A stretch of DNA of 15,377 bases from a virus (taxonomy: Duplodnaviria > Heunggongvirae > Uroviricota > Caudoviricetes). The DNA lies in IMG/VR virus record IMGVR_UViG_2713896899_000015; one strand, 5' to 3'. The translations under genes were made by a program, and so were the position numbers. This document shows positions 1,544 to 15,377 of this stretch, piece after piece (position 1 is the stretch's first letter; each line of letters begins with the position of its first letter). The notes below the pieces were generated by a model. That model was given only the letters and a program-made list of their open reading frames with translations, was not told the DNA's origin and did no database searches.

Positions 1544-1837
1544 TTACGTACGCAGCCGCTCCGGTTTTTTCCACTGGTAAGTCTTTTTCTCGCTCTCCCG
1601 ATACATCTCCACGCGGCGACGATATGACAACAACTCCAGAACTCTGATCCGTATGTCGCGCATATCCACGCCGTTAATCTCGATACCGTCACGGCGCATC
1701 ACCTCAGCCACCACACGCGCGTAATTTTCGGCTATCACGCTGTCCGGCTGCGTGGCCTCCTGTTTGTCTGCTGTCTGGCTGGCTCCGGTAACACGGCGGA
1801 TTATTTTTAGTAGTTCGGTTTCGCTCATTCTCGTCAT
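1544..1837 (-). CDS. Hypothetical protein (97 aa) translationally coupled to the end of terL
   Basis: ATG at 1835-1837 overlaps the terL stop (ATGA). Last gene of the packaging operon. No recognisable motif. Stop codon sits in the centre of palindrome cgtacgta-t-tacgtacg (1536-1552). Confidence 0.5.
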   Translation of the reverse strand: MTRMSETELLKIIRRVTGASQTADKQEATQPDSVIAENYARVVAEVMRRDGIEINGVDMRDIRIRVLELLSYRRRVEMYRESEKKTYQWKKPERLRT

Positions 1838-3495
1838 ACCCCATCAAACGCCGCAAGCCGCTCTTTGTGGCTGTCGCTCATATCGAATGCAAAGTCCTCG
1901 TGCTCTGCCTGGAATGTGCCAAACGCCATCAGCGCCGCAACGCTCGGGTCTATCTTGTTGGATGATTTTTTCTTGTTCGGCTTGATATTGGCGTTCGCGT
2001 CACTCTGCATCACAACATTACTCATTGACCAGGCCAGCACCGGATCACCACGATGAACAATCACCTTCCGGTTAACAAAAACTTCGAACGATTTCGCCGC
2101 CGGACTGAAACGAAGGTATGTTTGCGGGAACGGCTCCACCTCAAATCCTGCCCCCTGTAGCTGCGTTCTCAGGTGCGTGGCGTTCCATGTATCGAAACCC
2201 ACCAGCCTGATATTGAAATTCTCTGCATCCGCCATGATGTCATCACGGATACGGTCATAATCAATGCAGTCACCCGGTGTTGTGCGTATCCAGCCCGCCT
2301 TTGCCCACTGGCGATAGATGGCGCGGTTTTTATTGGCAGGGTTCTGTAGCTGAAATTCCGGCAGATAGTGACGGGAAACCAGCATAATCTTTTTACCGAC
2401 CGGAAAGGCATAGCACACGCTGGAAATATCGCTGGTTGATGATAAGTCCAGCCCCGCGTAGCACTCCTGCCCGTATAAATCCGCCTCCGCGAACGTTCCG
2501 GCGCACTCCGCCCATGCACCGTTACCCATCCACGGCGTAGCCCCCTGACACCAGATATTGAATCGCTTGGTGAGCATTTCCACCCACTGCGACGGAATAC
2601 CCCGCGCTTTCTGGATGGTTGAGGCCAGTTTTTCACGATCGACGGAAACATCGATATTGGGATTCGCCTTTATCCACATCGCCGGATCGTCAACCTCGCT
2701 TTCATCATCCAGCTCGTAAATCAGCACGAACATGGATTCGTTCACCTCTTCACCATCCAGTATCTGGCAGCAATAGTCGTAGTGTTGTTTACAGGCTGAA
2801 ACAACGTTGCTCCCCGATGTGGTGATGGCAAATAACAGCCCCTCCGGGCGCGCCCCCATTCCCAGCTCAAGCGCGGAATAAACCCCGTTGTCAGGATGCA
2901 GGTGATATTCATCCACAATGGCGAGACTCGGGTTTGTCCCCTCAATGGTTGCCGCTTTTGCTGCCAGTGGCTTTAACAGGCTGTTGGTTTTCGGGTGTAT
3001 CACCTTGTGCGCCTGAATATTTACCCGCTTTCGTAACGGTCGGGATAAAAGGCACATCTGACGCGCATCATCAAACACGATCCGCGCCTGATCACGACTC
3101 ACGGCGGCGGTGTAAATATCCTGCTGCCCGTTTTCCATAACCAGAAACCAGTTAGCCAGGATAGCGGCGACCGTGGATTTGGCATTTTTTCGCGGTACTT
3201 CAATGAATGCGCTGGTGTATTTGCGCCGTCCGGTGGCCTTAACCTTAAAGCCCAGGATGCACGCAAAGGCGAACTGCTGCCACGGCTCCAGTTCAATGGG
3301 GCTACCGCGCATTGCACCTTTTACGTGCGGGCACACCCTGGAAAAGGCAATAAACCGCTCCACGACCTCCGGATCGAACGTGTAAAGGGGGTTTTCAAGG
3401 TCAGAAAAATACCGTTTAACGGCCTGTTTCAGTCGTTTACAGGCCGTAATTTTGCCGTTTTTTACGCCTTCTGCGTACTCATGCCAGGCGGTCAA
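1834..3495 (-). CDS. terL: Terminase large subunit (Terminase_1-type ATPase/nuclease), 553 aa
   Basis: Size and N-terminal ATPase region with P-loop-like KNAKST and a DEYH Walker-B-like motif. Follows terS with a 17-nt overlap. Apparent TTG start at 3493-3495 preceded by AGAGGA (Shine-Dalgarno). Confidence 0.88.
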   Translation of the reverse strand: MTAWHEYAEGVKNGKITACKRLKQAVKRYFSDLENPLYTFDPEVVERFIAFSRVCPHVKGAMRGSPIELEPWQQFAFACILGFKVKATGRRKYTSAFIEVPRKNAKSTVAAILANWFLVMENGQQDIYTAAVSRDQARIVFDDARQMCLLSRPLRKRVNIQAHKVIHPKTNSLLKPLAAKAATIEGTNPSLAIVDEYHLHPDNGVYSALELGMGARPEGLLFAITTSGSNVVSACKQHYDYCCQILDGEEVNESMFVLIYELDDESEVDDPAMWIKANPNIDVSVDREKLASTIQKARGIPSQWVEMLTKRFNIWCQGATPWMGNGAWAECAGTFAEADLYGQECYAGLDLSSTSDISSVCYAFPVGKKIMLVSRHYLPEFQLQNPANKNRAIYRQWAKAGWIRTTPGDCIDYDRIRDDIMADAENFNIRLVGFDTWNATHLRTQLQGAGFEVEPFPQTYLRFSPAAKSFEVFVNRKVIVHRGDPVLAWSMSNVVMQSDANANIKPNKKKSSNKIDPSVAALMAFGTFQAEHEDFAFDMSDSHKERLAAFDGV

Positions 3496-3835
3496 GCTCG
3501 TCCTCTTCCTCTGTTTCCGGTGGATTTCTGCGTCGGCTTACCGGGTCAAAACCCAGCAAAGAAGCCATTTTGATCATTATTCTTTCTGCGTCAGCCTTTG
3601 CGCTCAGGGCGGGGTTTCTGCTCTCGCTGCCCTGACTGTTAACAATGCTGAAGCCGCGCGTCGCAAGGTCTTCGACGGCTTTGCGGTATATGGAGTAGTT
3701 AACGCAATACAGTTCCAGATTGCTCCAGTCGGCGGGGGTAAGGTCTTCCCGCCCGGAAAGCTGGCGCGATTTTTCCTTCCACTGCCTGACCGCGATTTCA
3801 TCCAGGTAAGCGGGGGCTTTTGGTGGTCTTGCCAT
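3479..3835 (-). CDS. terS: Terminase small subunit, P27 family (118 aa from MARPPKAP...)
   Basis: N-terminus MARPPKAPAYL, internal LELYC..Y, and C-terminal NP....A.....K...LGFDP.SR then acidic tail, as in phage P27-family TerS. The ORF-track 5' extension to 3976 is judged non-coding. ATG at 3833-3835. Confidence 0.8.
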   Translation of the reverse strand: MARPPKAPAYLDEIAVRQWKEKSRQLSGREDLTPADWSNLELYCVNYSIYRKAVEDLATRGFSIVNSQGSESRNPALSAKADAERIMIKMASLLGFDPVSRRRNPPETEEEDELDRLA

Positions 3836-3954
3836 GTTCTTTTTTCGCCCAATTATTTTCAAAAAAATTCCCGTGCACAAAAATTTGAGGAGGCGGTCGG
3901 TGTCCGGCAGGGGCGGTTTCGTCCTGAAAACCTCCCCCACCCCCTCTGACGGCC

Positions 3955-4140
3955 TCACCAGCGATTGCGAAAACATTCCATGACCTCGCGGTCACGGTCG
4001 GTTAATCGCTTCGCTGTGGTGCGTTCTGTGCGCTCTGTCCTGTTGGCTTTGTGCCCTGTCTCCTGTGTCTTCCATAAGTCACGCTGCCTTATCAGTCCAC
4101 GTATCAGCCTGTTTTGCTCCTGTTCAGTCATCATCGCCAT
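3955..4140 (-). CDS. Possible small basic protein (61 aa) between HNH and terS; uncertain
   Basis: ATG at 4138-4140 overlaps the last 15 nt of the HNH gene in another frame. Weak Shine-Dalgarno, Arg/Thr/Glu-rich. Could instead be non-coding (this region is a cos-site candidate). Confidence 0.3.
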   Translation of the reverse strand: MAMMTEQEQNRLIRGLIRQRDLWKTQETGHKANRTERTERTTAKRLTDRDREVMECFRNRW

Positions 4141-4564
4141 ACATCCAGTCGTTACGATGTGCCGCCCGTTCTTCCTGCTCGCGATACATGCCCGCCTTAC
4201 GGTTCGCTTTCGTGGCTGGATCTTCCCGTGTCGTCTTACGGTTGTGGCACGTCTGGCACAATGCCTGGTGGTTCCACTCAGGCCAGAAGAGAACATCACC
4301 GCCGCCATTGATGGGAATGATGTGATCCACCACAAGAGCTGGCGTATAAATACCCTTAGCCAGACAACGCACGCATAACGGATTTTTTTTCAGGTACATG
4401 GCGCGGTATTTGTCCCACAGTCGGGAATACCCACGTGCGCGGCGGTGTCCCCGTCTGGCATCCTCTGCACGCCATGCAGCCCGCCTGTGCTCTTCACACT
4501 TGCCGGACTTCACGCGCTTATTACAGCCCGGCTCAGTGCATCGCCTTAATGGTTGCCATGGCAT
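4124..4564 (-). CDS. HNH endonuclease (terminase-associated), 146 aa
   Basis: Cys-rich N-terminus (C..C..C), then VDHIIP...WNHQALCQTCHNRKT, an HNH motif. Sits immediately upstream of terS-terL as in HNH-dependent cos packaging modules. TGATG coupling to the upstream gene. Confidence 0.9.
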   Translation of the reverse strand: MPWQPLRRCTEPGCNKRVKSGKCEEHRRAAWRAEDARRGHRRARGYSRLWDKYRAMYLKKNPLCVRCLAKGIYTPALVVDHIIPINGGGDVLFWPEWNHQALCQTCHNRKTTREDPATKANRKAGMYREQEERAAHRNDWMYGDDD

Positions 4565-4860
4565 CAGTACACCCCCACATCACGATAAACCGACCAGAGC
4601 GCGGAAATCGTCAGGGGAATTTCTTTTGTATCGGTATCGCCAAGCGTTGTCCGGTACTCGTACAGTTGCGAGATGTACATCAGGCAACCAATTTTTATTG
4701 CAGGGGTAAATTCCAGGCCGTCATCAAAACGCCTGCCAATATGCTTCTGGCATACCTCCAGCGCCGCGCTTATGTATGCCTGAATCAGTGTGTCTTCTGT
4801 GTTACCATCTATGCGGCAGTGAAGTTTGGCCTCTTCCAGGGTTATTTTTTCTGCTGTCAT
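4564..4860 (-). CDS. Head-tail connector protein, gp6-like (98 aa)
   Basis: N-terminus ITLEEAKLHCRIDGNTEDTLIQAYISAALEVCQ is characteristic of the gp6-like connector family. ATGA overlap with the upstream gene. Confidence 0.7.
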   Translation of the reverse strand: MTAEKITLEEAKLHCRIDGNTEDTLIQAYISAALEVCQKHIGRRFDDGLEFTPAIKIGCLMYISQLYEYRTTLGDTDTKEIPLTISALWSVYRDVGVY

Positions 4861-5195
4861 TTTTCTGTACCCACCTTTGCCAGAATTTCCAGCCGGGTTC
4901 TTTTCGCATCAGGTAAGGGGATCCCGATGATATTAAGCGTGCTCCCGGCAAAAGCGCCGGTAAGCACTTTCAGGCGACTGGCGGCGGATATGTCGCCACG
5001 ATAGCGAACCCATACCCGAATCGTTGCAGGTGCGGTTTCTGCGCCTGCGGTCAGTAATTCCCGTCCGCTGATCCCCTTGACCTCTGCCCAGATGGTTTCC
5101 CCTTCCGTCCATATCTGCTGGATCGCACCTGACGGCAGGCGCTGTGTGGTAAATGTCATAATCGTCACCCGGTCCCGCATATTTCCGGCTATCAT
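4857..5195 (-). CDS. Head-closure / head-tail adaptor protein (Phage_H_T_join-like), 112 aa
   Basis: Pattern RDRVTI...IWAEVKGISGRE...IRVWVRYRGDI...LNIIGI matches the head-closure family. ATGA overlap with the portal stop. Confidence 0.7.
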   Translation of the reverse strand: MIAGNMRDRVTIMTFTTQRLPSGAIQQIWTEGETIWAEVKGISGRELLTAGAETAPATIRVWVRYRGDISAASRLKVLTGAFAGSTLNIIGIPLPDAKRTRLEILAKVGTEK

Positions 5196-6415
5196 TCGTC
5201 ACCGCCCTTACTGTTCTTGCTGATTGTCACTTCCTGCTTCCATGCCTGGCTGAACTCGTCGCCACCTTCACGCGGCGGCATTCCCTCACGCTCACGGGCT
5301 TCGTTCGGATTCATGATCCCGTTCTTAATTCCTTTCTCATACGTGGCGTAACGTTCGGTAGGTGTGGCGCGCAGTAAATCGGCTGAATCAAACTCAACCA
5401 GATAACGGGTACCAGGTACGGGAGAAGCCACCAGCAAAGCAGCCTTGATTTGCTGTTCGAAGTTCGCCAGCCATGGGCGCATTGTCATGGTCAGAAACGC
5501 GCGGCTTGCCTCGCTGAAATTGCTGTAGGTGCTATTGCTGTATTCCTGCAGAAAAATAGGCGATACGTTGAACATCCGGGCGATGTCTTCAATGGAGAAG
5601 CGACGGGAGGCCAGCCATTCCGCATCCTGGTTACTCATTCCCAGTTGCTTGTAATCCATGCCCCCTTCAAGGATTGGCGTTTTTCCGGCATTTTTCGCCC
5701 CCTTGTAGCGTTCCAGAGCATCCAATGCCTGTTTACCTTTCACGCCGTCCAGCCATTCGCCTGACGTGATAATCCCTGCCGCCATCATGCCATCTTTCAT
5801 AATGCTGGCTCCGTGGCGCTGTTGAGCAAGGCCAAGCCCAAGTGCCTCACGGCAAATCGTGACAGGGGAGCGCCCCAGAAAGCCATCATCCGAGGCATAG
5901 CGGAGATGCAGAACTTCTTCCTGTAAATACGTGCGCACCGTTCCTGTATAGGGTTCGGTGATGGTATAGCGGTATTTGTGTGCGCCTGTGCGTTCCGGTA
6001 CAACACAACCCGGTGCATAAGGATGAAGTGATTTGGGCTGCCCGTCCCGCCCCCACTCAATAACCGCATAGGCGTTACCGTTCAGCAGGCAGTGACGCAT
6101 CATTGTGCGTTTAAACTGGTAAGGTGTCTGGCACGAATTAGGCTGCTCATTCAGCAGAATATCTACCGGATGACTGTCCAGCCATTCCCGCGCCTCCCTG
6201 CCCTTGTCATTACGTACCAGATACAGATAACAAGGCATCGTGGCCACCGCCTCAGCGATGACAGAAACCGCGTTCATCACTGCAGGCAATGATTCAGCCG
6301 TTCCGGCAGAAACATATTCTCCGGATCCGGTATTCGGTACACCGGACAGCGCCAGAAAATCATCAATGGACAGGTTACGCAGATCGCTTTTTTTACGACT
6401 AAAAGGCCACCACAT
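5192..6415 (-). CDS. Portal protein, HK97 family (407 aa from MWWPF...)
   Basis: Length and composition typical of HK97-type portals. ATG at 6413-6415 lies 1 nt after the protease stop. The ORF-track extension to 6505 uses a TTG and overlaps the protease gene, so is judged unlikely. Confidence 0.85.
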   Translation of the reverse strand: MWWPFSRKKSDLRNLSIDDFLALSGVPNTGSGEYVSAGTAESLPAVMNAVSVIAEAVATMPCYLYLVRNDKGREAREWLDSHPVDILLNEQPNSCQTPYQFKRTMMRHCLLNGNAYAVIEWGRDGQPKSLHPYAPGCVVPERTGAHKYRYTITEPYTGTVRTYLQEEVLHLRYASDDGFLGRSPVTICREALGLGLAQQRHGASIMKDGMMAAGIITSGEWLDGVKGKQALDALERYKGAKNAGKTPILEGGMDYKQLGMSNQDAEWLASRRFSIEDIARMFNVSPIFLQEYSNSTYSNFSEASRAFLTMTMRPWLANFEQQIKAALLVASPVPGTRYLVEFDSADLLRATPTERYATYEKGIKNGIMNPNEAREREGMPPREGGDEFSQAWKQEVTISKNSKGGDE

Positions 6416-6416
6416 A

Positions 6417-6977
6417 TCACAACCCCGCCAGTTCAGCCCAGCGATGACGATTATTTCCTGCCGGGCGTAATTCAGGGTGCTGTGCAAACAACGAACGGTG
6501 GGCAATCTCCACGCCGGATTCGGGATAAGCAGGCATCGACGTTATCGTGATTTCACGGAGTTCTGCGGCAGTTACGGTACGCAGATACGGTTTTTGCGCG
6601 ATACTCCACTCCTCGCATAATGCGCGAAAACCAAAGCTCATTCCTGTAATGTCGCCACGCTCCACCAGCGTAAGCACATCTTTTCCAAGCTGGGTATCCG
6701 GCGGTGTCAGCTCAAAACGTAACCCGGTGTTATCCTCAGTCAGTACCAGAGTGCCGGATTTGGTGCGCCCCAGCAGTTGGGTATAGTCATGCTCATACAG
6801 GCAGCGCACATCATTACCCGCCGCCAGATAGTCAGCAAAAGCCCCCGGCGTGAACTGTTCGCGGAATTCGTCCCAGATAATTTCTGAAAGGCTGTTCCAG
6901 CGAACGGCATAACCCACCAGTTTTTTATCGCTGGCGGTCAGTTCAGATGTGCGGATTTCAAAATCGGTGTTTTTCAT
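6417..6977 (-). CDS. Prohead protease, HK97 family (186 aa)
   Basis: Motifs GYAVRWNS...GxxxxLxEDxxGL...GMSFGF are characteristic of HK97-family prohead maturation proteases. GGAG Shine-Dalgarno 8 nt upstream of the ATG. Confidence 0.85.
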   Translation of the reverse strand: MKNTDFEIRTSELTASDKKLVGYAVRWNSLSEIIWDEFREQFTPGAFADYLAAGNDVRCLYEHDYTQLLGRTKSGTLVLTEDNTGLRFELTPPDTQLGKDVLTLVERGDITGMSFGFRALCEEWSIAQKPYLRTVTAAELREITITSMPAYPESGVEIAHRSLFAQHPELRPAGNNRHRWAELAGL

Positions 6978-6997
6978 CGGTGTACTCCATAAAGCTG

Positions 6998-7019
6998 AAA
7001 AAGGAGGCCGCAGCCTCCT
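6998..7019 (-). terminator. Intrinsic terminator-like hairpin (partial terminator / mRNA stabiliser) just after the capsid gene
   Basis: On the minus strand: AGGAGGC-tgcg-GCCTCCT followed by TTTT. 7-bp stem, 4-nt loop, U-tract. Lies between the capsid stop (7032) and the protease start (6977). Confidence 0.35.
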
Positions 7020-7031
7020 CCTTACTCATGA

Positions 7032-8201
7032 CTAGCCAGCTTTCATTTCCAGAATTTTGATGGCGTTTGAATCCACCACACCACCGCCCAGATATTTATC
7101 CGTGTGGACCTTGTAGAATCCGGGTTCAGTAATGTTGTCCGGTCGGGTGCGAATCCCTGTTACATGATCAACGATGAAATAACCACGACTGAAATCGCCA
7201 ACCGCTAGCGGTGCTTTTCCTGCGCCGATGTCCGGCATGGACTCCAGGCAGTAAACAGGACGACCAAGCAACATATCCGGCGCACCTTCTTTAAGGCTGT
7301 CGCGCCAGATATAATCGCCGTTCTCATTTTTCAGCTTCTGTAGTGTCCCTGCCGTGCCCGAGTTCATCACCCAGACGGCATTTTTGCGGTATTTCGCTTT
7401 CAGCTTGTAGAGAATGTCGATCAGTTCGTCCGCTGTAATGGCGGTTCCACTTGCCGCTACCATTTTTTCAATGGTGCCAAAAGCGCGGGTTTTGTCACTG
7501 GTCGCCGCACGGGTGTAAGCCATGAATCCTTTCGGCTTGCCGTTACCGTCGCCATTAACAAAATCATCCTCTTCGGTGCTGGCGAACGTGTCGGCAATTT
7601 CGGAGGATAACCAGCCCAGAATATCCACCTCTGAAAAATCCAAGATTTCCTGCGTGGTTTTCGGGTAGGCGTAGATCGGATTCAGCTTGATGGTTACGCG
7701 TTCAATTTTCGGGGTGTTGGTTTCGCTGCGCGCGCTGCCTTCTGTGCCTCTTCCTACAGTTGCGCCGCCAGTGGAAACCAGTTTCTGAAACTCATTTGAT
7801 TTTGCGGTCTTCACGGTCGCGATCACGCGCATAACACTGTCATCCTGTAGCTGGCGCATGACTTCGCGATCAAGCTCAGGAATTACGGTATATCCGCCAT
7901 CCCTGCCGCTGTCAGTGCTGGTGGACAGTGATCGCACATCTCCGGTTACGATATAGTTACGCAATTCATCAGATGATAATTTCTGGATGCCCGTTCCTGG
8001 CTTGCTGCGTTCTTCATCAGCCACAGACTCGAGGCGGGAAATTTCTGTGTCGAGGGAATCGGCTTTTGCACGCAGTTCATCAAACTGTTTGCCCTCGTCA
8101 TCGTTCAGGCTGCGGTTTTCACTGTCGGCTTTTTCCAGCAGGGATCGCATCTGGTTTTTCAGGGCGGTTTTTTGCTGGCGGAGTTCGATTAATTTCTTCA
8201 T
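7032..8201 (-). CDS. Major capsid protein, HK97 fold, with N-terminal coiled-coil delta (scaffold) domain (389 aa)
   Basis: N-terminal ~100 aa is charged and heptad-like (delta domain). C-terminal region GTAGTLQKL...LLGRPV...GDFSRGYFIVD is typical of HK97-family capsid proteins. No separate scaffold gene. Confidence 0.9.
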   Translation of the reverse strand: MKKLIELRQQKTALKNQMRSLLEKADSENRSLNDDEGKQFDELRAKADSLDTEISRLESVADEERSKPGTGIQKLSSDELRNYIVTGDVRSLSTSTDSGRDGGYTVIPELDREVMRQLQDDSVMRVIATVKTAKSNEFQKLVSTGGATVGRGTEGSARSETNTPKIERVTIKLNPIYAYPKTTQEILDFSEVDILGWLSSEIADTFASTEEDDFVNGDGNGKPKGFMAYTRAATSDKTRAFGTIEKMVAASGTAITADELIDILYKLKAKYRKNAVWVMNSGTAGTLQKLKNENGDYIWRDSLKEGAPDMLLGRPVYCLESMPDIGAGKAPLAVGDFSRGYFIVDHVTGIRTRPDNITEPGFYKVHTDKYLGGGVVDSNAIKILEMKAG

Positions 8202-8401
8202 GAAGGTTTTCTCGTATTGGTTAAGATTCAGGACGTGAAACCAACACGGAGGGAGCGCCGCCCGACACTCTCGGCATCTCGCAGATCAACCCGGCATCGC
8301 GCAGGGGGTCAGGCGGCATTGTGGCGGCTCACGTCTGAGTGCCACACGCCAACATATACATAAAAATCAGTATGTAAACATCAGCCAGAATCACCGAACA
8401 A

Positions 8402-8470
8402 CCTGGAACAACCACGAACAAATAATTTACAAAACCTGAAAAAAAGACCTGAAAAAAAATCTAGGCCTTT
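8402..8470. repeat. 3 x 10-bp phased units caccgaacaa / cctggaacaa / ccacgaacaa (8402-8431) plus tandem 13-bp acctgaaaaaaa(g/a) x2 (8445-8470), in the capsid-upstream intergenic gap
   Basis: Near-identical to the array at 201-230 (shared 17-mer ccacgaacaa...). Located in the 275-bp noncoding gap 8202-8476 upstream of the capsid gene. Candidate activator-binding site or late promoter. Confidence 0.7.
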
Positions 8471-8476
8471 ATCGCT

Positions 8477-8725
8477 TTATTGTTTCACTGGATCCCGCAT
8501 TCTGCGTCTTATTTTCCACAGATATTCGATCATCGCTTCCACCTGCTCACGGTTGGTTGCGAAAATTTCCCCGGTCAGTGAGCTGCGCAGAAAATCATGA
8601 TGATCCACAACAAACAACGCATCGGAAGAAAGCAGACGGCGATATTTTTTTGCTGTCGTGGTTTCCAGATCATCAAAACCATGAAACTTTTTATGTTGCT
8701 GAACTTCTTCAAATGTCACTGGCAT
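8477..8725 (-). CDS. Hypothetical protein (82 aa)
   Basis: ATG at 8723-8725 with a GGGGG Shine-Dalgarno 5 nt upstream. Overlaps the ProQ/FinO gene stop by 10 nt. No recognisable motif. Confidence 0.55.
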   Translation of the reverse strand: MPVTFEEVQQHKKFHGFDDLETTTAKKYRRLLSSDALFVVDHHDFLRSSLTGEIFATNREQVEAMIEYLWKIRRRMRDPVKQ

Positions 8726-9246
8726 GTATCCCCCTTTGCTGCCCGGCGCTGGCGCTTGTGCTTCTCATTCAGCGCCATCAGCCGCGTTTCTGCCTCCTGC
8801 TGTTCCTGTGGTGTCACTTCCCCACATGGCTGGCCTTTCAGGTCGTAGCGTACCCCACCAGCTATTAAGGCGCGGTAATAGCGCGGAGACTGCGCATAGG
8901 ATGCCAGCGTCGCACGTAATGCCCCCGGCCCGAATGTCAGCCCCCTGGCGGCGATATCCTGCATCAGGTCGTCGAATATCCCCACCTTAAGCGGCTTCGG
9001 TGCTTCCCGGCTGAATAATTCTGGCCACAATTCAATAAGGCGGTTAACGCGTCTGCGGTTTTTGCGCTGGCGTTTGGTCATATGCCGCCACGCTGTCGCC
9101 CCTGTGGGTTTCTGCTGTGCGTTCTGATTGCCGGGTATCACTTTATGCGCCGATGTGGTTTTATCCTGCTGCTGTGCCGCCTGCGGTATTTTCTGCGGCG
9201 TGCCGTAAATGCCTTTCGGTTTTCGGTTAATGGTCATCTTTGTCAT
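8716..9246 (-). CDS. ProQ/FinO-domain RNA-binding protein (176 aa; alternative start at 9237)
   Basis: C-terminal half KPLKVGIFDDL...LRATLASYAQSPRYYRALIAGGVRYDLKGQPCGEV aligns by eye with E. coli ProQ (RPLKIGIFQDL...LRSALRLYTSSWRYL...RVDLDGNPCGEL). Basic, low-complexity N-terminus. Confidence 0.85.
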   Translation of the reverse strand: MTKMTINRKPKGIYGTPQKIPQAAQQQDKTTSAHKVIPGNQNAQQKPTGATAWRHMTKRQRKNRRRVNRLIELWPELFSREAPKPLKVGIFDDLMQDIAARGLTFGPGALRATLASYAQSPRYYRALIAGGVRYDLKGQPCGEVTPQEQQEAETRLMALNEKHKRQRRAAKGDTCQ

Positions 9247-9944: not shown

Positions 9945-12080
9945 TTAATCTTCTTCGCTTTCTGGCTGGAACATCAGCACGTAAAAAACATGCTGCTTCC
10001 CCCCAATTTTGCCGAGCGCCTTTTTCTTGTAACGGCGATCGTTACCCGCTTCCAGCATTCCGGCAGCACTCAACGCGCGGGCAAAGTGAGACGGATTAAA
10101 TCCCTGTGCTATCTCACCCTCAAATACATGCGGGAATGTGTAAAAACGGAACTCGTCATCTTCGTTTCTGATACTCCCCTTTCTGTATCCGGCAAGCTCT
10201 TTAATCGGTAAATCACGCTCGTCAGAGTTGGGCCAGGGAAGGTATCTGCTGAATCCGAACGACGCTAAAAAAGCCTCTGCCTGTTCAACCATCTGTTTAA
10301 ACTCCCTGTTACCCGTGCCGAACTCCTTCACCCAGGCATTAAAATTATGCTGTATGGCATCGCGGCATTCCTGCTCATCCCAGCCAGTAACATGACCTGA
10401 AAGCACAAGCGCGGCCTCCAGTATGGCAAATCGCTCCCCCACACGGTGAACCTGTTCGCCGTAGCTCTCCGGTATCAGGTTGCGCCACCGCTCACGGCAT
10501 GTCCTTACCGTGTCCTTTGCCTCCTGCTGGTGTTCTGCCAGCCATTTAACCCACTCACGACCCGCTGCCCCGTGATTTTCTGTCCAGGCATCCTTTAACG
10601 CGTCTGCGTGCGCCTTTCCGGTGCTGTATTCGTGAAATTGTGTGGCTTTTTCCATCGGCACGTTAAGCAGACGGACAAGCTGCCCCGCTTTAATTTTTAT
10701 CCCTTCCGTTTTGAGGAATGTTTCAACGTCCATTTCTCCGGTACTGATTGCCACCGTGCGCCAGTGTTTGATCTCCCTGTTGCCGCCGTCCTTCGCCCCC
10801 TGTAATTTCCCCGAACCGTTAAACAGCGTATAAGCCGACGTGGACACTTCCCGCGCGTTTCCGGCCTGACCTATTTCATCCAGGGGTAACAGCCCGTCAT
10901 TGTGCGCCTCTGCCTCGTTGGCGATGCCTAACGCTGTACCGTACCAGGTCAGCCGTTGCGCGTCCGGCTCTCCCCATAAACTGGATGCGATGTTCTGTGT
11001 GGTGGTTTTCCCTGCCGATGACTGTTCGAAAAGATGTACCCCGAAGCCGTCAGCACCCACCAGCCCGATTAATGGTGCGGATAATGATACCGCCACACCC
11101 AGCATCATGGACGGATTACCACCAGCCAACCGCGCAACGGTATCGCGCCAGCCCTCCGCCGTTCCTGCCACGGAATAACCATTAACAGCGGCAGTTTTTC
11201 CGGTAAACAGGACTGGCTTTTCGCAATCACCAATGACCGAACCGTCCGGCATGATGTACGCGCCAAAATGCCAGCCCGTTGTTGTGCTTAACTGCCATTC
11301 CTCATGGTTTCCGCTTAACTGCATCCAGTCAGCCAGGATAGCCCTGTATTTACCGTTGGTTGTCACATTCAGTCCGTGGTCTTTCAGCAGCCGCCAGCCG
11401 TCACGGTCGCCAATGCCCCCACACGGGATCGCCATTGTGATGACTTCATGGTTTGCTGGTTTTTTCCAGCGCATCACGCGGTAATGCTCTTTGCCGATTG
11501 TCCCCGTTCCCAGTAGTTCAAGCGGGGAACATAACCACGTCTCAGGCCGGATAATTTCGCCTGACTGCTTATCCACTTTTGGCGTTACCCAGAAAACACC
11601 ATCGGCACGGCTTTCAACGCGGGGCTTTAATTCATCATCACCCGGGCTTGTGGTGGTTTTTTTCTTTACCGGAAGTTTAATTACCAGATCTGCAGAAAGA
11701 TTCTGACGCTCAACGTTCAGATAGCGCCGCCAGTTCTCGCATTTCTGACCGTGCATTCCTTCAGGGTAAAAATTCGCATCCTGAATATCTGCCGCCGCCA
11801 GCTTCTGACCGATCTTTTTGGTCTCCACTAAATCCAGTTCTCCGGCCTGGTACAGCCTTACGCGTTTTTTCCCATCCGGAACAATTTTCAGCGCATCAAG
11901 TTCGGCAAGCTGATTTGGCCCAAGCCACACAGGCGGCACATCATCGCCAGATGCGGGGCCGTCCTGCTCCTGCCACTGTTTTGCATGTGCCCACGCATCA
12001 CTACCCGCGAAAATAATTACCTCTGTGTCTTTGTGTTTTATTCCGCGTGGTTGTTTTTTTACGTTCGGTGCCAGTTTCAT
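9945..12080 (-). CDS. Replication initiator, primase/helicase-type (PICI Pri-Rep / P4 alpha-like), 711 aa
   Basis: Large multidomain protein with a P-loop (SSAGKTT) in the central region. Directly upstream of the iteron origin. ATG at 12078-12080 overlaps the preceding gene stop (ATGA). Domain family not verified by search. Confidence 0.75.
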   Translation of the reverse strand: MKLAPNVKKQPRGIKHKDTEVIIFAGSDAWAHAKQWQEQDGPASGDDVPPVWLGPNQLAELDALKIVPDGKKRVRLYQAGELDLVETKKIGQKLAAADIQDANFYPEGMHGQKCENWRRYLNVERQNLSADLVIKLPVKKKTTTSPGDDELKPRVESRADGVFWVTPKVDKQSGEIIRPETWLCSPLELLGTGTIGKEHYRVMRWKKPANHEVITMAIPCGGIGDRDGWRLLKDHGLNVTTNGKYRAILADWMQLSGNHEEWQLSTTTGWHFGAYIMPDGSVIGDCEKPVLFTGKTAAVNGYSVAGTAEGWRDTVARLAGGNPSMMLGVAVSLSAPLIGLVGADGFGVHLFEQSSAGKTTTQNIASSLWGEPDAQRLTWYGTALGIANEAEAHNDGLLPLDEIGQAGNAREVSTSAYTLFNGSGKLQGAKDGGNREIKHWRTVAISTGEMDVETFLKTEGIKIKAGQLVRLLNVPMEKATQFHEYSTGKAHADALKDAWTENHGAAGREWVKWLAEHQQEAKDTVRTCRERWRNLIPESYGEQVHRVGERFAILEAALVLSGHVTGWDEQECRDAIQHNFNAWVKEFGTGNREFKQMVEQAEAFLASFGFSRYLPWPNSDERDLPIKELAGYRKGSIRNEDDEFRFYTFPHVFEGEIAQGFNPSHFARALSAAGMLEAGNDRRYKKKALGKIGGKQHVFYVLMFQPESEED

Positions 12081-12369: not shown

Positions 12370-12597
12370 TTATTCTCCGGTGTGCTGCGCTTTATTATTC
12401 TCGTGAATTGCCATCACTGTATTTAATTCATTAATTACTGGCGTTAATAATGTGTGCACGGCAGAAAACATCATGGGATATGATTCATCGCCATTTTCCT
12501 GCACTTCCATTAACTTAAGTAATAATGCCTCCATTTCCTTTGCGCGGATTAATGCGTTTTCAGAATGAACAAGAACATCAAAGGGTATTTTATGCAT
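12370..12597 (-). CDS. Hypothetical protein (75 aa)
   Basis: ATG at 12595-12597 overlaps the upstream gene stop (ATGCATAA). Helical-looking, acidic. No recognisable motif. Confidence 0.6.
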   Translation of the reverse strand: MHKIPFDVLVHSENALIRAKEMEALLLKLMEVQENGDESYPMMFSAVHTLLTPVINELNTVMAIHENNKAQHTGE

Positions 12598-12793
12598 GAC
12601 TCACCCCCTGACGAATACGGGCGGCGAATACCATCACGCAGCCAGCCGGGGATTGCTGGCGTGCTTCCTGTTCGCTGGTGGCCTCAATGGTAATCACGCG
12701 CGGTTGTGCCGTGCTCAGGGCGATAAAACGCCAGATATATTTATTCAGGTTGTGCGAGTCCCGCCCTTGCGGGTGTGTGGTATGATTTAACAT
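12590..12793 (-). CDS. Hypothetical protein (67 aa), first gene of the leftward replication operon
   Basis: ATG at 12791-12793 preceded by a strong GAGGT Shine-Dalgarno. The 306-aa ORF in the track is this frame extended upstream through the divergent promoter and RHH gene, which is judged spurious. Confidence 0.55.
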   Translation of the reverse strand: MLNHTTHPQGRDSHNLNKYIWRFIALSTAQPRVITIEATSEQEARQQSPAGCVMVFAARIRQGVSHA

Positions 12794-12992: not shown

Positions 12993-13172
12993 ATGGCAAC
13001 GGGTACAACAAACGCAAAATCACAAGCTCTAAAGGCTCGTGTACCACACGAAATAGTAAACGCCATGGAATCAGTGAAAGAATCAGGCGAAAGCACATCA
13101 CAATTCATCATTGCGTCAATGCAAGGCGAGATCAAACGCCGCCAGCGACGCAAAGCCAAGGAGTCAGAATAA
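12993..13172 (+). CDS. Ribbon-helix-helix (CopG/Arc/MetJ-like) DNA-binding protein, 59 aa; candidate island repressor/regulator
   Basis: ATG at 12993 with GAGGAATAGAA Shine-Dalgarno. Sequence KARVPHEIVNAMESVKESGESTSQFIIASMQGEI fits the RHH pattern (beta-strand RVP, helix, G.S.S..I, helix). Confidence 0.65.
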   Translation: MATGTTNAKSQALKARVPHEIVNAMESVKESGESTSQFIIASMQGEIKRRQRRKAKESE

Positions 13173-13520: not shown

Positions 13521-13730
13521 TTACGCTGCCTTGCCTGAATTAATGCGATCCCGGCTTTTAACCCATTCCATAACCTCGGACAGCAGCCAACCTACAGAAC
13601 GACCGCCCAGATTAAGGCGTGACGGAAATCGCCCTTTTTTCTCCAGTTCGTAGCGTGTAGTGCGACACACTCCAGTTAACTTACGACATTCATCCTCACG
13701 GATTACGCGATCTTCATTTATTTCACGCAT
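13521..13730 (-). CDS. alpA: AlpA-family (MerR/excisionase-like) transcriptional regulator, 69 aa
   Basis: LTGVCRTTRYELEKKGRFPSRLNLGGRSVGWLLSEVMEWVKSR matches the AlpA/Xis helix-turn-helix pattern (..T.Y.....G.FP....LG.R.VGW...EV.EW...R). ATG at 13728-13730 with AGGT Shine-Dalgarno. The track's longer ORF starts at a GTG (13817) with no Shine-Dalgarno. Confidence 0.8.
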   Translation of the reverse strand: MREINEDRVIREDECRKLTGVCRTTRYELEKKGRFPSRLNLGGRSVGWLLSEVMEWVKSRDRINSGKAA

Positions 13731-14138: not shown

Positions 14139-15377
14139 TCAAGAATTTTGGGTGTAAATTCGCGGGGTCATAACAACGATTTTTTCATCATTGTTCTGGA
14201 GAAGCTCGAGACGGTCTACCCATAGATTAAGAGCATCACGTTTTGCATCAAGATAACGGGAGTGGTTATAGACTCGTTGCATCCCTGGCATCTGGTGGGC
14301 TGTAAGCTGCTCGACAATATGCGGATCCACGCCTAAATCGTTCAGCATGGTTGTAAATGTGTGCCGGATATCGTGTAACGTCCAGGGGGCTTGATTAATT
14401 CGTCTGTGCGCTGTTCTTCCGTACTCTGCTACGGATGATTGCCCTTTCAGTTCTCCAAGCAATAAGCCCGTGTGCCTGTTCTTCTCCACCAGCTGCGTGA
14501 CGAACGGCAGAATGCTTTCCGGTATTGGTCTGAATATGGCGACCTTCGTTTTGCTGTGCTCCTTCGGTACTGTCCAGAGCATTTCCTTAAAATCCCACTC
14601 CTGCACCTCAGAGCGCCTTAGCTCAGTGGTACGGCATCCAAAAACAATCAGGAGGCGAATTAGGGCGCTGTAGTACGGCGGGAAGATTTTTTCATCCAGT
14701 GCGCGGAGTAGTTCCCCAAGCTCTTTGTTTGTCAGTACACGCTCACTTATTTCTGCTTTTTTCCCCACATCACCTACGACCATATCATCAAGAACGTTGC
14801 TGATTGCGTATCGTCGTTTTCGGCAGTACTTAAGCGCCTGTTTGCATACCTGTAGCAAAAATCCGGCTGATACCGGATTACGCTTAGCAAGCTGGTCAAA
14901 ACAGGCCAGCCAGTGGCGTAGCTCGCATTTTTCCAGTGGCATAGCGCCAATCTGGCTAATTATGTGTTTATTGATCCGGCTTTTCAGTGATTCGTAGTCA
15001 GTGCGCTTTTCCTTTGCGTACGATTCAAGCCAGTAAGTGAGCGCTTCCTTAACCGTCACGGGGGCTAACGCATCCTGTACAGCATGATTAAGTTCATAAC
15101 GCGGATTTTTCCCCTCAGCCAGCCAGGCGCGACACTGTGCCGCTTTTTCCCTGGCAGCTTTCAGGCTCAGATCGGGATAATTGCCCAGCCTCAGACGTTC
15201 CGGTGATATCTGCCTACCAGTTCCGGCCCTGTAAGTGAAATACCAGGTTAACAGGCCATTGATTGAATGCCTTACGCTAAGGTTGCCACCATCATTAAAA
15301 AAGGTGCTTTTTGTGGTTGGTGATCCGCTTAATTTTCGTAAAAGAGTGTCGCTAAGTCTATGAATTGCCCTGCTCAT
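14139..15377 (-). CDS. int: Tyrosine recombinase / site-specific integrase, P4-like (412 aa; start codon on the window edge)
   Basis: C-terminal catalytic region HDIRHTF...LTAHQMPGMQRVYNHSRY contains the H-x-x-R and terminal Tyr nucleophile context of tyrosine integrases. Size is typical of P4-family integrases. The ATG occupies 15375-15377, so a further upstream start cannot be excluded. Confidence 0.9.
   Translation of the reverse strand: MSRAIHRLSDTLLRKLSGSPTTKSTFFNDGGNLSVRHSINGLLTWYFTYRAGTGRQISPERLRLGNYPDLSLKAAREKAAQCRAWLAEGKNPRYELNHAVQDALAPVTVKEALTYWLESYAKEKRTDYESLKSRINKHIISQIGAMPLEKCELRHWLACFDQLAKRNPVSAGFLLQVCKQALKYCRKRRYAISNVLDDMVVGDVGKKAEISERVLTNKELGELLRALDEKIFPPYYSALIRLLIVFGCRTTELRRSEVQEWDFKEMLWTVPKEHSKTKVAIFRPIPESILPFVTQLVEKNRHTGLLLGELKGQSSVAEYGRTAHRRINQAPWTLHDIRHTFTTMLNDLGVDPHIVEQLTAHQMPGMQRVYNHSRYLDAKRDALNLWVDRLELLQNNDEKIVVMTPRIYTQNS

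Follow-up and report, generated by a model that had tools for sequence, protein, structure and literature searches.

Phage-inducible chromosomal islands of the capsid-forming type (cf-PICIs) are phage satellites, and they matter because they move DNA between species by fitting their own capsids to the tails of different phages. The prototype is EcCIEDL933 of E. coli O157:H7 EDL933, in which each gene of the capsid-formation and packaging module is needed for transfer, a mutant of gene 1792 being severely impaired, and the founding paper describes one conserved gene order for the Proteobacterial clade (Alqurainy et al., bioRxiv 10.1101/2022.09.08.507074). Two Firmicute cf-PICI clades, which have independent origins according to published trees of the capsid and the large terminase (TerL), place either portal-protease-capsid or HNH-TerS-TerL first, TerS being the small terminase (bioRxiv 10.1101/2022.09.08.507074). 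Induction by a helper phage, T=4 capsids encoded by the island, packaging from the island's own cos site and the use of helper tails have all been shown for EcCIEDL933 and its relatives in published work. The DNA analyzed here is the 15,377-nucleotide stretch of IMG/VR virus record IMGVR_UViG_2713896899_000015 (the window, meaning this whole stretch), and its genes at 1834-8201 follow the order of the Proteobacterial clade. We conclude, with a probability of about 0.95, that the window is a cf-PICI of that clade and that 1834-8201 is its capsid-formation and DNA-packaging operon. The first-pass annotation had singled out this order, with the capsid gene first and the terminase genes last, as a departure from HK97-like phages. 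It is, however, an already published hallmark of cf-PICIs and no new arrangement, and since it is the published defining organisation of the Proteobacterial clade, it carries no new signal here. The window is therefore best labelled a cf-PICI, and the gene-order signature belongs to the published definition of the family; what may be new is confined to a conserved leader and a hairpin on either side of the capsid gene.

This identification is carried by the gene content, the size and the insertion site. Searches with Pfam and PHROGs found an integrase, AlpA, a DUF927 primase and a head/packaging module in the window, whose long open reading frames (ORFs) all lie on the minus strand, and no match to tail or lysis families among the scanned window ORFs. 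Only positions 1-106 match E. coli genomes without the island (96% identity; the match overlaps yljB and adjoins clpS), which places the right-hand island junction near 106, and the island is flanked by clpS and by yljB/cspD, in a chromosome of the E. coli type; other cf-PICIs use the same integration site. From this junction to the integrase start at 15377 the island measures ~15.3 kb, a slight underestimate because attL lies outside the window, and within the ~10-18 kb size range of cf-PICIs. Integrase, AlpA and primase together with a complete head/packaging set, no tail and a size of ~15 kb fit the cf-PICI description. The eight head/packaging components plus integrase, alpA and primase make up all 11 SatelliteFinder core components, a 'Type A' set, and the packaging proteins are collinear with those of EcCIEDL933 at 54-94% amino acid identity, where the range used for membership is 50-90% similarity. 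The capsid protein has its best solved-structure match in PDB 9gyi (E=1.7e-155), whose printed sequence starts with the same residues as the EcCIEDL933 capsid. In contrast, the window has neither the tail and lysis modules nor the TerS-TerL-portal-protease-capsid order of a complete HK97-like temperate phage, and it encodes portal, connectors and TerL, which are 'forbidden' components in the SatelliteFinder PICI model and set it apart from the classical PICI/P4-like class. A tRNA scan and an Rfam scan of the window (E up to 0.1) returned nothing. The features are given below in the direction of transcription; percentages are amino acid identities to the corresponding EcCIEDL933 protein.

14139-15377, minus strand: tyrosine integrase (Pfam Phage_integrase, 1e-18; Arm-DNA-bind_3, 8e-16); the window ends at its start codon.
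13521-13730, minus strand: AlpA-family regulator/excisionase, the PICI inducer gene (Phage_AlpA, 2e-16); start taken from the 210-nt homologue in locus L001.
12590-12793, minus strand: Icd-like small protein (phrog_6196, 2e-45); annotated Icd-like at the same position in L001.
9945-12080, minus strand: DUF927 primase/helicase-type replication protein (DUF927, 1e-45; phrog_1139 DNA primase, 1e-178).
8202-8476, minus strand: regulatory gap, 275 bp, before the capsid gene.
7032-8201, minus strand: HK97-fold major capsid protein with N-terminal delta/scaffold domain (Pfam Phage_capsid, 2e-71); 64%.
6998-7023, minus strand: GC-rich hairpin and T-run immediately behind the capsid stop codon, resembling a terminator or stabiliser.
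6417-6977, minus strand: prohead serine protease (Peptidase_S78, 9e-46; phrog_80); 63%.
5192-6415, minus strand: portal (Phage_portal, 7e-93; phrog_12, 6e-119); 81%.
4857-5195, minus strand: head-closure protein Hc1, HK97 gp7-like (Phage_HCP, 2e-18; phrog_25), the 'adaptor' of cf-PICI papers; 54%.
4564-4860, minus strand: gp6-like head-tail connector Ad1 (Phage_connect_1, 8e-12; phrog_40); 68%.
4124-4564, minus strand: HNH endonuclease, which works with terminase (Pfam HNH, 9e-10; phrog_144, 1e-44); 84%.
3955-4140, minus strand: 61-amino-acid basic protein between HNH and TerS (phrog_3173, 1e-28), the positional homologue of EcCIEDL933 gene 1792; 80%.
3880-3944, minus strand: cos region, from alignment to the HK97 ends and the phiP27 cos-site.
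3479-3835, minus strand: small terminase TerS, P27 family (Terminase_4, 4e-23; phrog_83); 88%.
1834-3495, minus strand: large terminase TerL (TerL_ATPase and TerL_nuclease, 3e-52; phrog_9, 6e-181); 94%.
1544-1837, minus strand: conserved 97-amino-acid protein after TerL (phrog_1561, 1.5e-48); 72% to the ORF in the same position.
1-106, no strand: chromosomal flank adjoining clpS (match to island-free E. coli; context in L001).

The operon is compact, as the genes from the protease to the 61-amino-acid ORF and those from TerS to the 97-amino-acid ORF abut or overlap by up to 17 nt, and its sole gaps are the 275 bp before the capsid gene, the 54 bp after it and the 119 bp before TerS. All eight family assignments and coordinates of the first-pass annotation (capsid, protease, portal, head-closure, connector, HNH, TerS, TerL) hold against Pfam and PHROGs, and the comparison with satellites that it proposed was a right one. 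EcCIEDL933 is collinear with the window over ten consecutive genes. With a capsid alignment as query, 160 loci were collected from IMG/VR and from bacterial contigs with one genome per species. Since these are the best 80 matches of each scan, all with a capsid identity of at least 59%, they sample the satellite clade and not distant phages; true phages were sampled separately from an annotated phage collection. The fetched loci come from Enterobacterales, Pasteurellales and Orbales. Every one of the 141 loci with capsid, portal and TerL has the order capsid, protease, portal, (Hc1), Ad1, HNH, TerS, TerL, and the remaining 19 hold the first few module genes only, in the same order. A search with 25 proteins of tail, neck and lysis revealed a tail module in none of the 141 complete loci: 129 gave no match, and 12 have one stray tail-type gene. 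Capsid-protease-portal-Hc1-Ad1-HNH-ORF-cos-TerS-TerL is thus the fixed architecture of the clade, and the order does serve as a signature for finding relatives, as had been proposed, being among the published cf-PICI search criteria as well.

The difference from canonical HK97-like phages also stands. The eight true phages examined (ST64B, phiP27, Klebsiella ST101-KPC2phi6.3, Burkholderia PhiBt-E264.1, Vibrio K306, Streptococcus Javan29, HK97 and Ralstonia YO036_3) all have (HNH-cos-)TerS-TerL-portal-protease-capsid-Ad1-Hc1-tail, so that in this sample the satellite order is not common in ordinary prophages. The lambdoid prophage at 29209-36882 of L007, from EDL933, is complete-looking and by its annotation runs HNH-TerS-TerL, a 645-amino-acid 'major capsid protein' and then portal, so the canonical order is not universal among real phages either. 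The word 'inverted', with which the order was first described, does not fit, because HNH-TerS-TerL and cos keep the phage arrangement and there is neither a mirror image nor a change of strand. Rather, the head sub-blocks portal-protease-capsid and Ad1-Hc1 are each reversed and moved upstream of HNH on the same strand, and since their order is reversed while their strand is kept, simple DNA inversions cannot yield this arrangement. In phiP27 and HK97, HNH, cos, TerS and TerL become adjacent once the genome is circular, in the same sub-block order as in the window. The packaged linear map of the island would still begin with TerS-TerL, as in phages, with the head genes at its far right end. Lysis genes lie upstream of HNH in such phages, which is the position of the island's head genes on the packaged map.

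Satellites and true phages are separated by a wide gap in protein identity. In the phage collection a few small records reach 61-77% for the capsid and 70-83% for TerL, while all others stay at or below 37%. Those of the few high-identity records that were examined (vB_KppS-Ant, Pmp8 and P12620-1) have the satellite order. Sequences deposited as phages that match the cf-PICI module wholly or partly are LR881103.1, OR544138.1, OR544139.1, OR850982.1 and PQ569648.1. vB_KppS-Ant (16.5 kb) and Pmp8 (15.3 kb) have the satellite layout, Klebsiella phage P12620-1 (106 kb) carries a cf-PICI at one end, Pmp7 (10.7 kb) matched in its terminase genes only, and S.Kent 1-2-1 (3.8 kb) in the capsid gene and leader only. 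A search for different phage sources of the head and terminase blocks was uninformative, as both are 30-37% identical to the same kinds of phages.

Because the terminase-cos sub-block is unchanged from HK97/phiP27-type phages, the likely cleavage site can be located. Between the 61-amino-acid ORF and TerS there is a G-rich box (3931-3944), followed ~32 nt later by GACCGCCTCCTC (3887-3898) and then by an A/T-rich tract. Its counterparts in an alignment are the physical ends of the HK97 DNA (...GACCGCCGCCAAA/GTTTG...) and the annotated cos-site of phiP27, which share the homologous layout of G-rich box, GACCGCC... and A/T tract, and the cos cleavage site is likely at about 3887-3898. The ends of the linear vB_KppS-Ant record were also considered as the cut and were rejected: they lack ~60 nt that all other relatives have, and both the ends of HK97 and the annotated cos of phiP27 indicate a position ~35 nt further downstream.

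In the gap upstream of the capsid gene (8202-8476), a conserved block (block A, 8415-8434) and a promoter-like site precede a structured 5' leader. The promoter-like site resembles a sigma70 promoter, with TTTACA at 8378-8373, a 16-nt spacer and TATGTT at 8356-8351, and an alignment of 52 relatives showed conservation of the box TTTGTAAATTATTTGTTC, of the -10 region and of the leader up to the start codon. By eye, the upstream box and -10 region fit none of the LexA, CRP, boxA/nut and P2-type TGT-N12-ACA readings. The leader extends over ~8345-8202 in the window and 125-165 nt in relatives and can be folded into three helices, of which P1 (8345-8321) starts close to the position at which transcription from the promoter-like site would begin. 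RNAalifold predicted 18 pairs, 13 of them with compensatory changes; in the three-helix model 93.5% of the cells are paired, compared with 34-46% when the partner columns are slid, and 14 pairs change on both sides, a value found in 0 of 500 shuffles. P1 is paired in 100% of cases, with 4 of 8 pairs covarying and a sequence that is almost invariant including the loops, all nine pairs of P2 covary, and P3 is conserved and overlaps a weak ribosome-binding site. A covariance model of the leader had all its matches immediately before capsid genes of Enterobacterales cf-PICIs and gave no match in the true-phage loci or EDL933 prophages searched. Likewise, in BLAST searches of E. coli genomes and the phage collection, every leader match whose context was examined lies upstream of a cf-PICI capsid gene. 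Rfam has no match to the leader, and the cf-PICI literature searched makes no mention of a promoter for this operon, of the leader or of the hairpin.

On the other side of the capsid gene, within the 54-bp gap, lies the GC hairpin with its T-run. Under a criterion requiring a strict GC core, 82 of 111 unique relatives carry such a hairpin no more than 60 nt from the capsid stop, as against 0.3% of shuffles and 0.1% of coding windows used as controls. Earlier detectors of a hairpin plus T-run undercounted it: one that judged the fold of the whole segment found it in 38 of 114 unique intergenic regions, and another, in which A-T and G-T pairs absorbed the T-run, in 27 of 116. A terminator scan of the whole window gave 19 candidates compared with 18 in shuffles and missed the post-capsid hairpin. 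The HK97 record has a putative terminator annotated at the same post-capsid position, and a GC hairpin follows the capsid gene in five of six other phages.

By homology with EcCIEDL933, a helper phage would switch on alpA, after which the island would excise and replicate by means of its DUF927 primase. With the capsid protein, protease and portal that it encodes, the operon would build small HK97-fold capsids of T=4 geometry. HNH, TerS and TerL would cleave the cos site of the island itself and fill each head with a single island genome, and Hc1 and Ad1 would close the head and dock it onto helper-phage tails. For this copy we infer induction, capsid size, cos cleavage and tail hijacking from homologues. 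The capsid gene would head the operon in an expression cassette of its own, consisting of the promoter-like site and structured leader at its 5' side and the hairpin and T-run at its 3' side, which lends some sequence support to the earlier idea of selection for high capsid expression and makes it plausible. Hairpins at both sides would favour abundant capsid mRNA and lower the read-through into the low-copy genes, so that capsid mRNA would be expected to exceed the message of the later genes. We suggest, tentatively and at close to even odds, that an undescribed regulatory cassette, to which the conserved upstream box would also belong, travels with the packaging module in Enterobacterales cf-PICIs, that its leader is a new family of cis-regulatory RNA setting capsid output or coupling the operon to a conserved factor, and that this explains the capsid-first order. 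The leader and hairpin offer a testable handle on capsid stoichiometry and operon timing in satellites.

Several observations weigh against such a cassette. P3 hardly covaries, and when the window's own leader is folded, the minimum-energy structure has a different third helix. The promoter scan of the whole window found 7 sites compared with 16 in shuffles, so the promoter call draws on conservation and position. In addition, true phages also have a post-capsid hairpin, and the hairpin by itself is thus no explanation of the reordering. The order could instead be a frozen accident of ancestral module assembly, kept by translational coupling and without a role in expression. Because Firmicute cf-PICIs use other orders, and both of their clades work with them, this alternative stands; canonical phages moreover make capsid in large amounts from a gene in fifth place, and overlapping genes make reshuffling costly. 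On the other hand, what speaks against an accident is that conservation around the capsid gene, and around that gene alone, takes in a promoter-like site, a leader with covariation and a hairpin with T-run, and that the gene order falls with the copy number each product needs. HK97-type heads need roughly 235 capsid subunits, 12 each of portal and connectors, and only a few terminase molecules. We regard the frozen accident as a distinct possibility, though with the odds somewhat against it.

The identity of the window as a satellite is much less in doubt, and none of the observations contradicts the cf-PICI assignment. All module genes derive from phages, IMG/VR routinely labels relatives as proviruses, and some relatives were deposited as phages, which could suggest an HK97-like prophage in decay, with its tail and lysis genes lost and its head genes shuffled through rearrangement. 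However, 141 loci from three bacterial orders have these genes in this order, none of the nine ORFs is broken and their coupling is tight, the left half consists of the int-alpA-DUF927 set of PICIs and P4-type elements and is not lambdoid, the closest studied relative is a functional satellite, and no true phage exceeds 37% identity for capsid or TerL, all of which makes decay very improbable. An autonomous producer of particles, either a gene transfer agent or a minimal phage, in place of a helper-dependent satellite seems just as improbable, even though the next-best structure matches of the capsid after 9gyi are those of Rhodobacter capsulatus (6tb9, 'Rcc01687', and 6tba; E near 2e-55), which we take to be the capsid of a gene transfer agent. 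The scanned ORFs include no tail, holin or endolysin genes, and an integrase together with an own cos site indicates an element that packages itself and not random DNA. Clusters for gene transfer agents such as RcGTA, furthermore, keep the canonical order and include tail genes.

The first-pass annotation had also offered independent module assembly as a reason for the order, and this holds for sub-cassettes only: compared with EcCIEDL933, capsid and protease are far more diverged than TerL, and Hc1 and Ad1 are swapped or missing among relatives. Hc1 is the variable cassette (4768-5233 in the window). The nearest relatives at the DNA level are 96-98% identical on both sides of Hc1 and lack it, with 14 bp from portal to Ad1, and in 29 of 144 loci there is no space for it. 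NZ_CP182378.1, the one relative compared at the protein level, has a different Ad1 (56% identical). The window's Hc1 is 59-69% identical to the Hc1 of true HK97-like phages (59% to HK97 gp7), more than to that of EcCIEDL933, whereas the other module proteins are at or below 40% identity to the phages compared. Published cf-PICI work has shown that tail specificity is determined by the adaptor and connector genes and that islands identical in all else exchange them, and the mosaicism of Hc1 and Ad1 fits this exchange.

Additional genes were noted within or beside the module of some relatives. A tape-measure-like gene, at most 59% identical to a Klebsiella phage tape measure protein and without a Pfam match, occupies the cargo position after TerL in L002 (2036-4333), L020, L022, L025 and L069. 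Pasteurellaceae relatives have a tail terminator of the lambda gpU type beside the capsid gene or just after TerL (L005, 14914-15321; L133, L148, L154, L156, L160, L162 and L165; Phage_tail_U, 1e-19, in Pmp8). In L029 (11209-11748), L050, L051 and L054, an HNH_3-type endonuclease gene with a weak AP2 match, which looks like a homing endonuclease, lies between capsid and protease, 3' of the hairpin.

Elsewhere in the window, the 306-amino-acid ORF at 12590-13510 matches an Icd-like family only in its last 67 codons (12590-12793) and is probably spurious upstream of 12793. On the strand opposite to it there is a phrog_949 ORF at about 12993-13172, and the window's best sigma70-like match is found at 12931-12902 (minus strand). 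Before the operon, Pfam also identified a DUF4222 protein, SSB and a ProQ/FinO-domain protein, and there is an 82-amino-acid protein as well. The ProQ/FinO-domain cargo gene (8716-9246), just before the packaging operon, is missing both in an E. coli relative that occupies the same site and in EcCIEDL933, where a PerC-family gene is found. Positions 107-1543 have a lower GC content; four of the larger ORFs there had no match in PHROGs, nor three of these in PADLOC, and PADLOC found nothing among the accessory ORFs. For the 309-nt ORF at 617-925, a 'hypothetical protein' of the same length is annotated at roughly the corresponding place in strain A34.

Among known systems, EcCIEDL933 is thus the closest studied one, sharing with the window the ten-gene order from capsid through the ORF after TerL, a DUF927 protein that is 93% identical in the region compared, and a size (near 15.4 kb) about equal to that of the island described here. 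The two differ in insertion site, which is next to phoQ in EcCIEDL933 and at clpS/yljB here, and in the accessory genes before the operon, namely PerC in EcCIEDL933 and the ProQ/FinO gene with a phrog_1957 protein in the window; their 5' leaders have also diverged (40 bits vs 91 bits with the leader model). Near-identical E. coli cf-PICIs at the clpS site, such as NZ_CP182378.1 and the IMG/VR proviruses L010-L018, share the insertion site and are 96-99% identical over capsid, protease, portal, HNH, TerS and TerL, but most lack Hc1 and they have no ProQ/FinO gene. Phages with cos sites of the HK97/phiP27 type have the same protein families, HNH-cos-TerS-TerL, a homologous cos and a post-capsid hairpin; however, their head genes follow TerL as portal-protease-capsid-Ad1-Hc1, they carry tail and lysis genes, and their capsid, portal and TerL are only 30-37% identical to those of the window. 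Classical PICIs of the EcCICFT073 type and P4-like satellites share the left half made up of int, alpA and primase, the induction by AlpA and an Icd-like gene, but have no capsid, portal, connectors or TerL and remodel or redirect helper capsids instead. The Firmicute cf-PICI clades, finally, have the same gene content and lifestyle as the window and differ from it in gene order.

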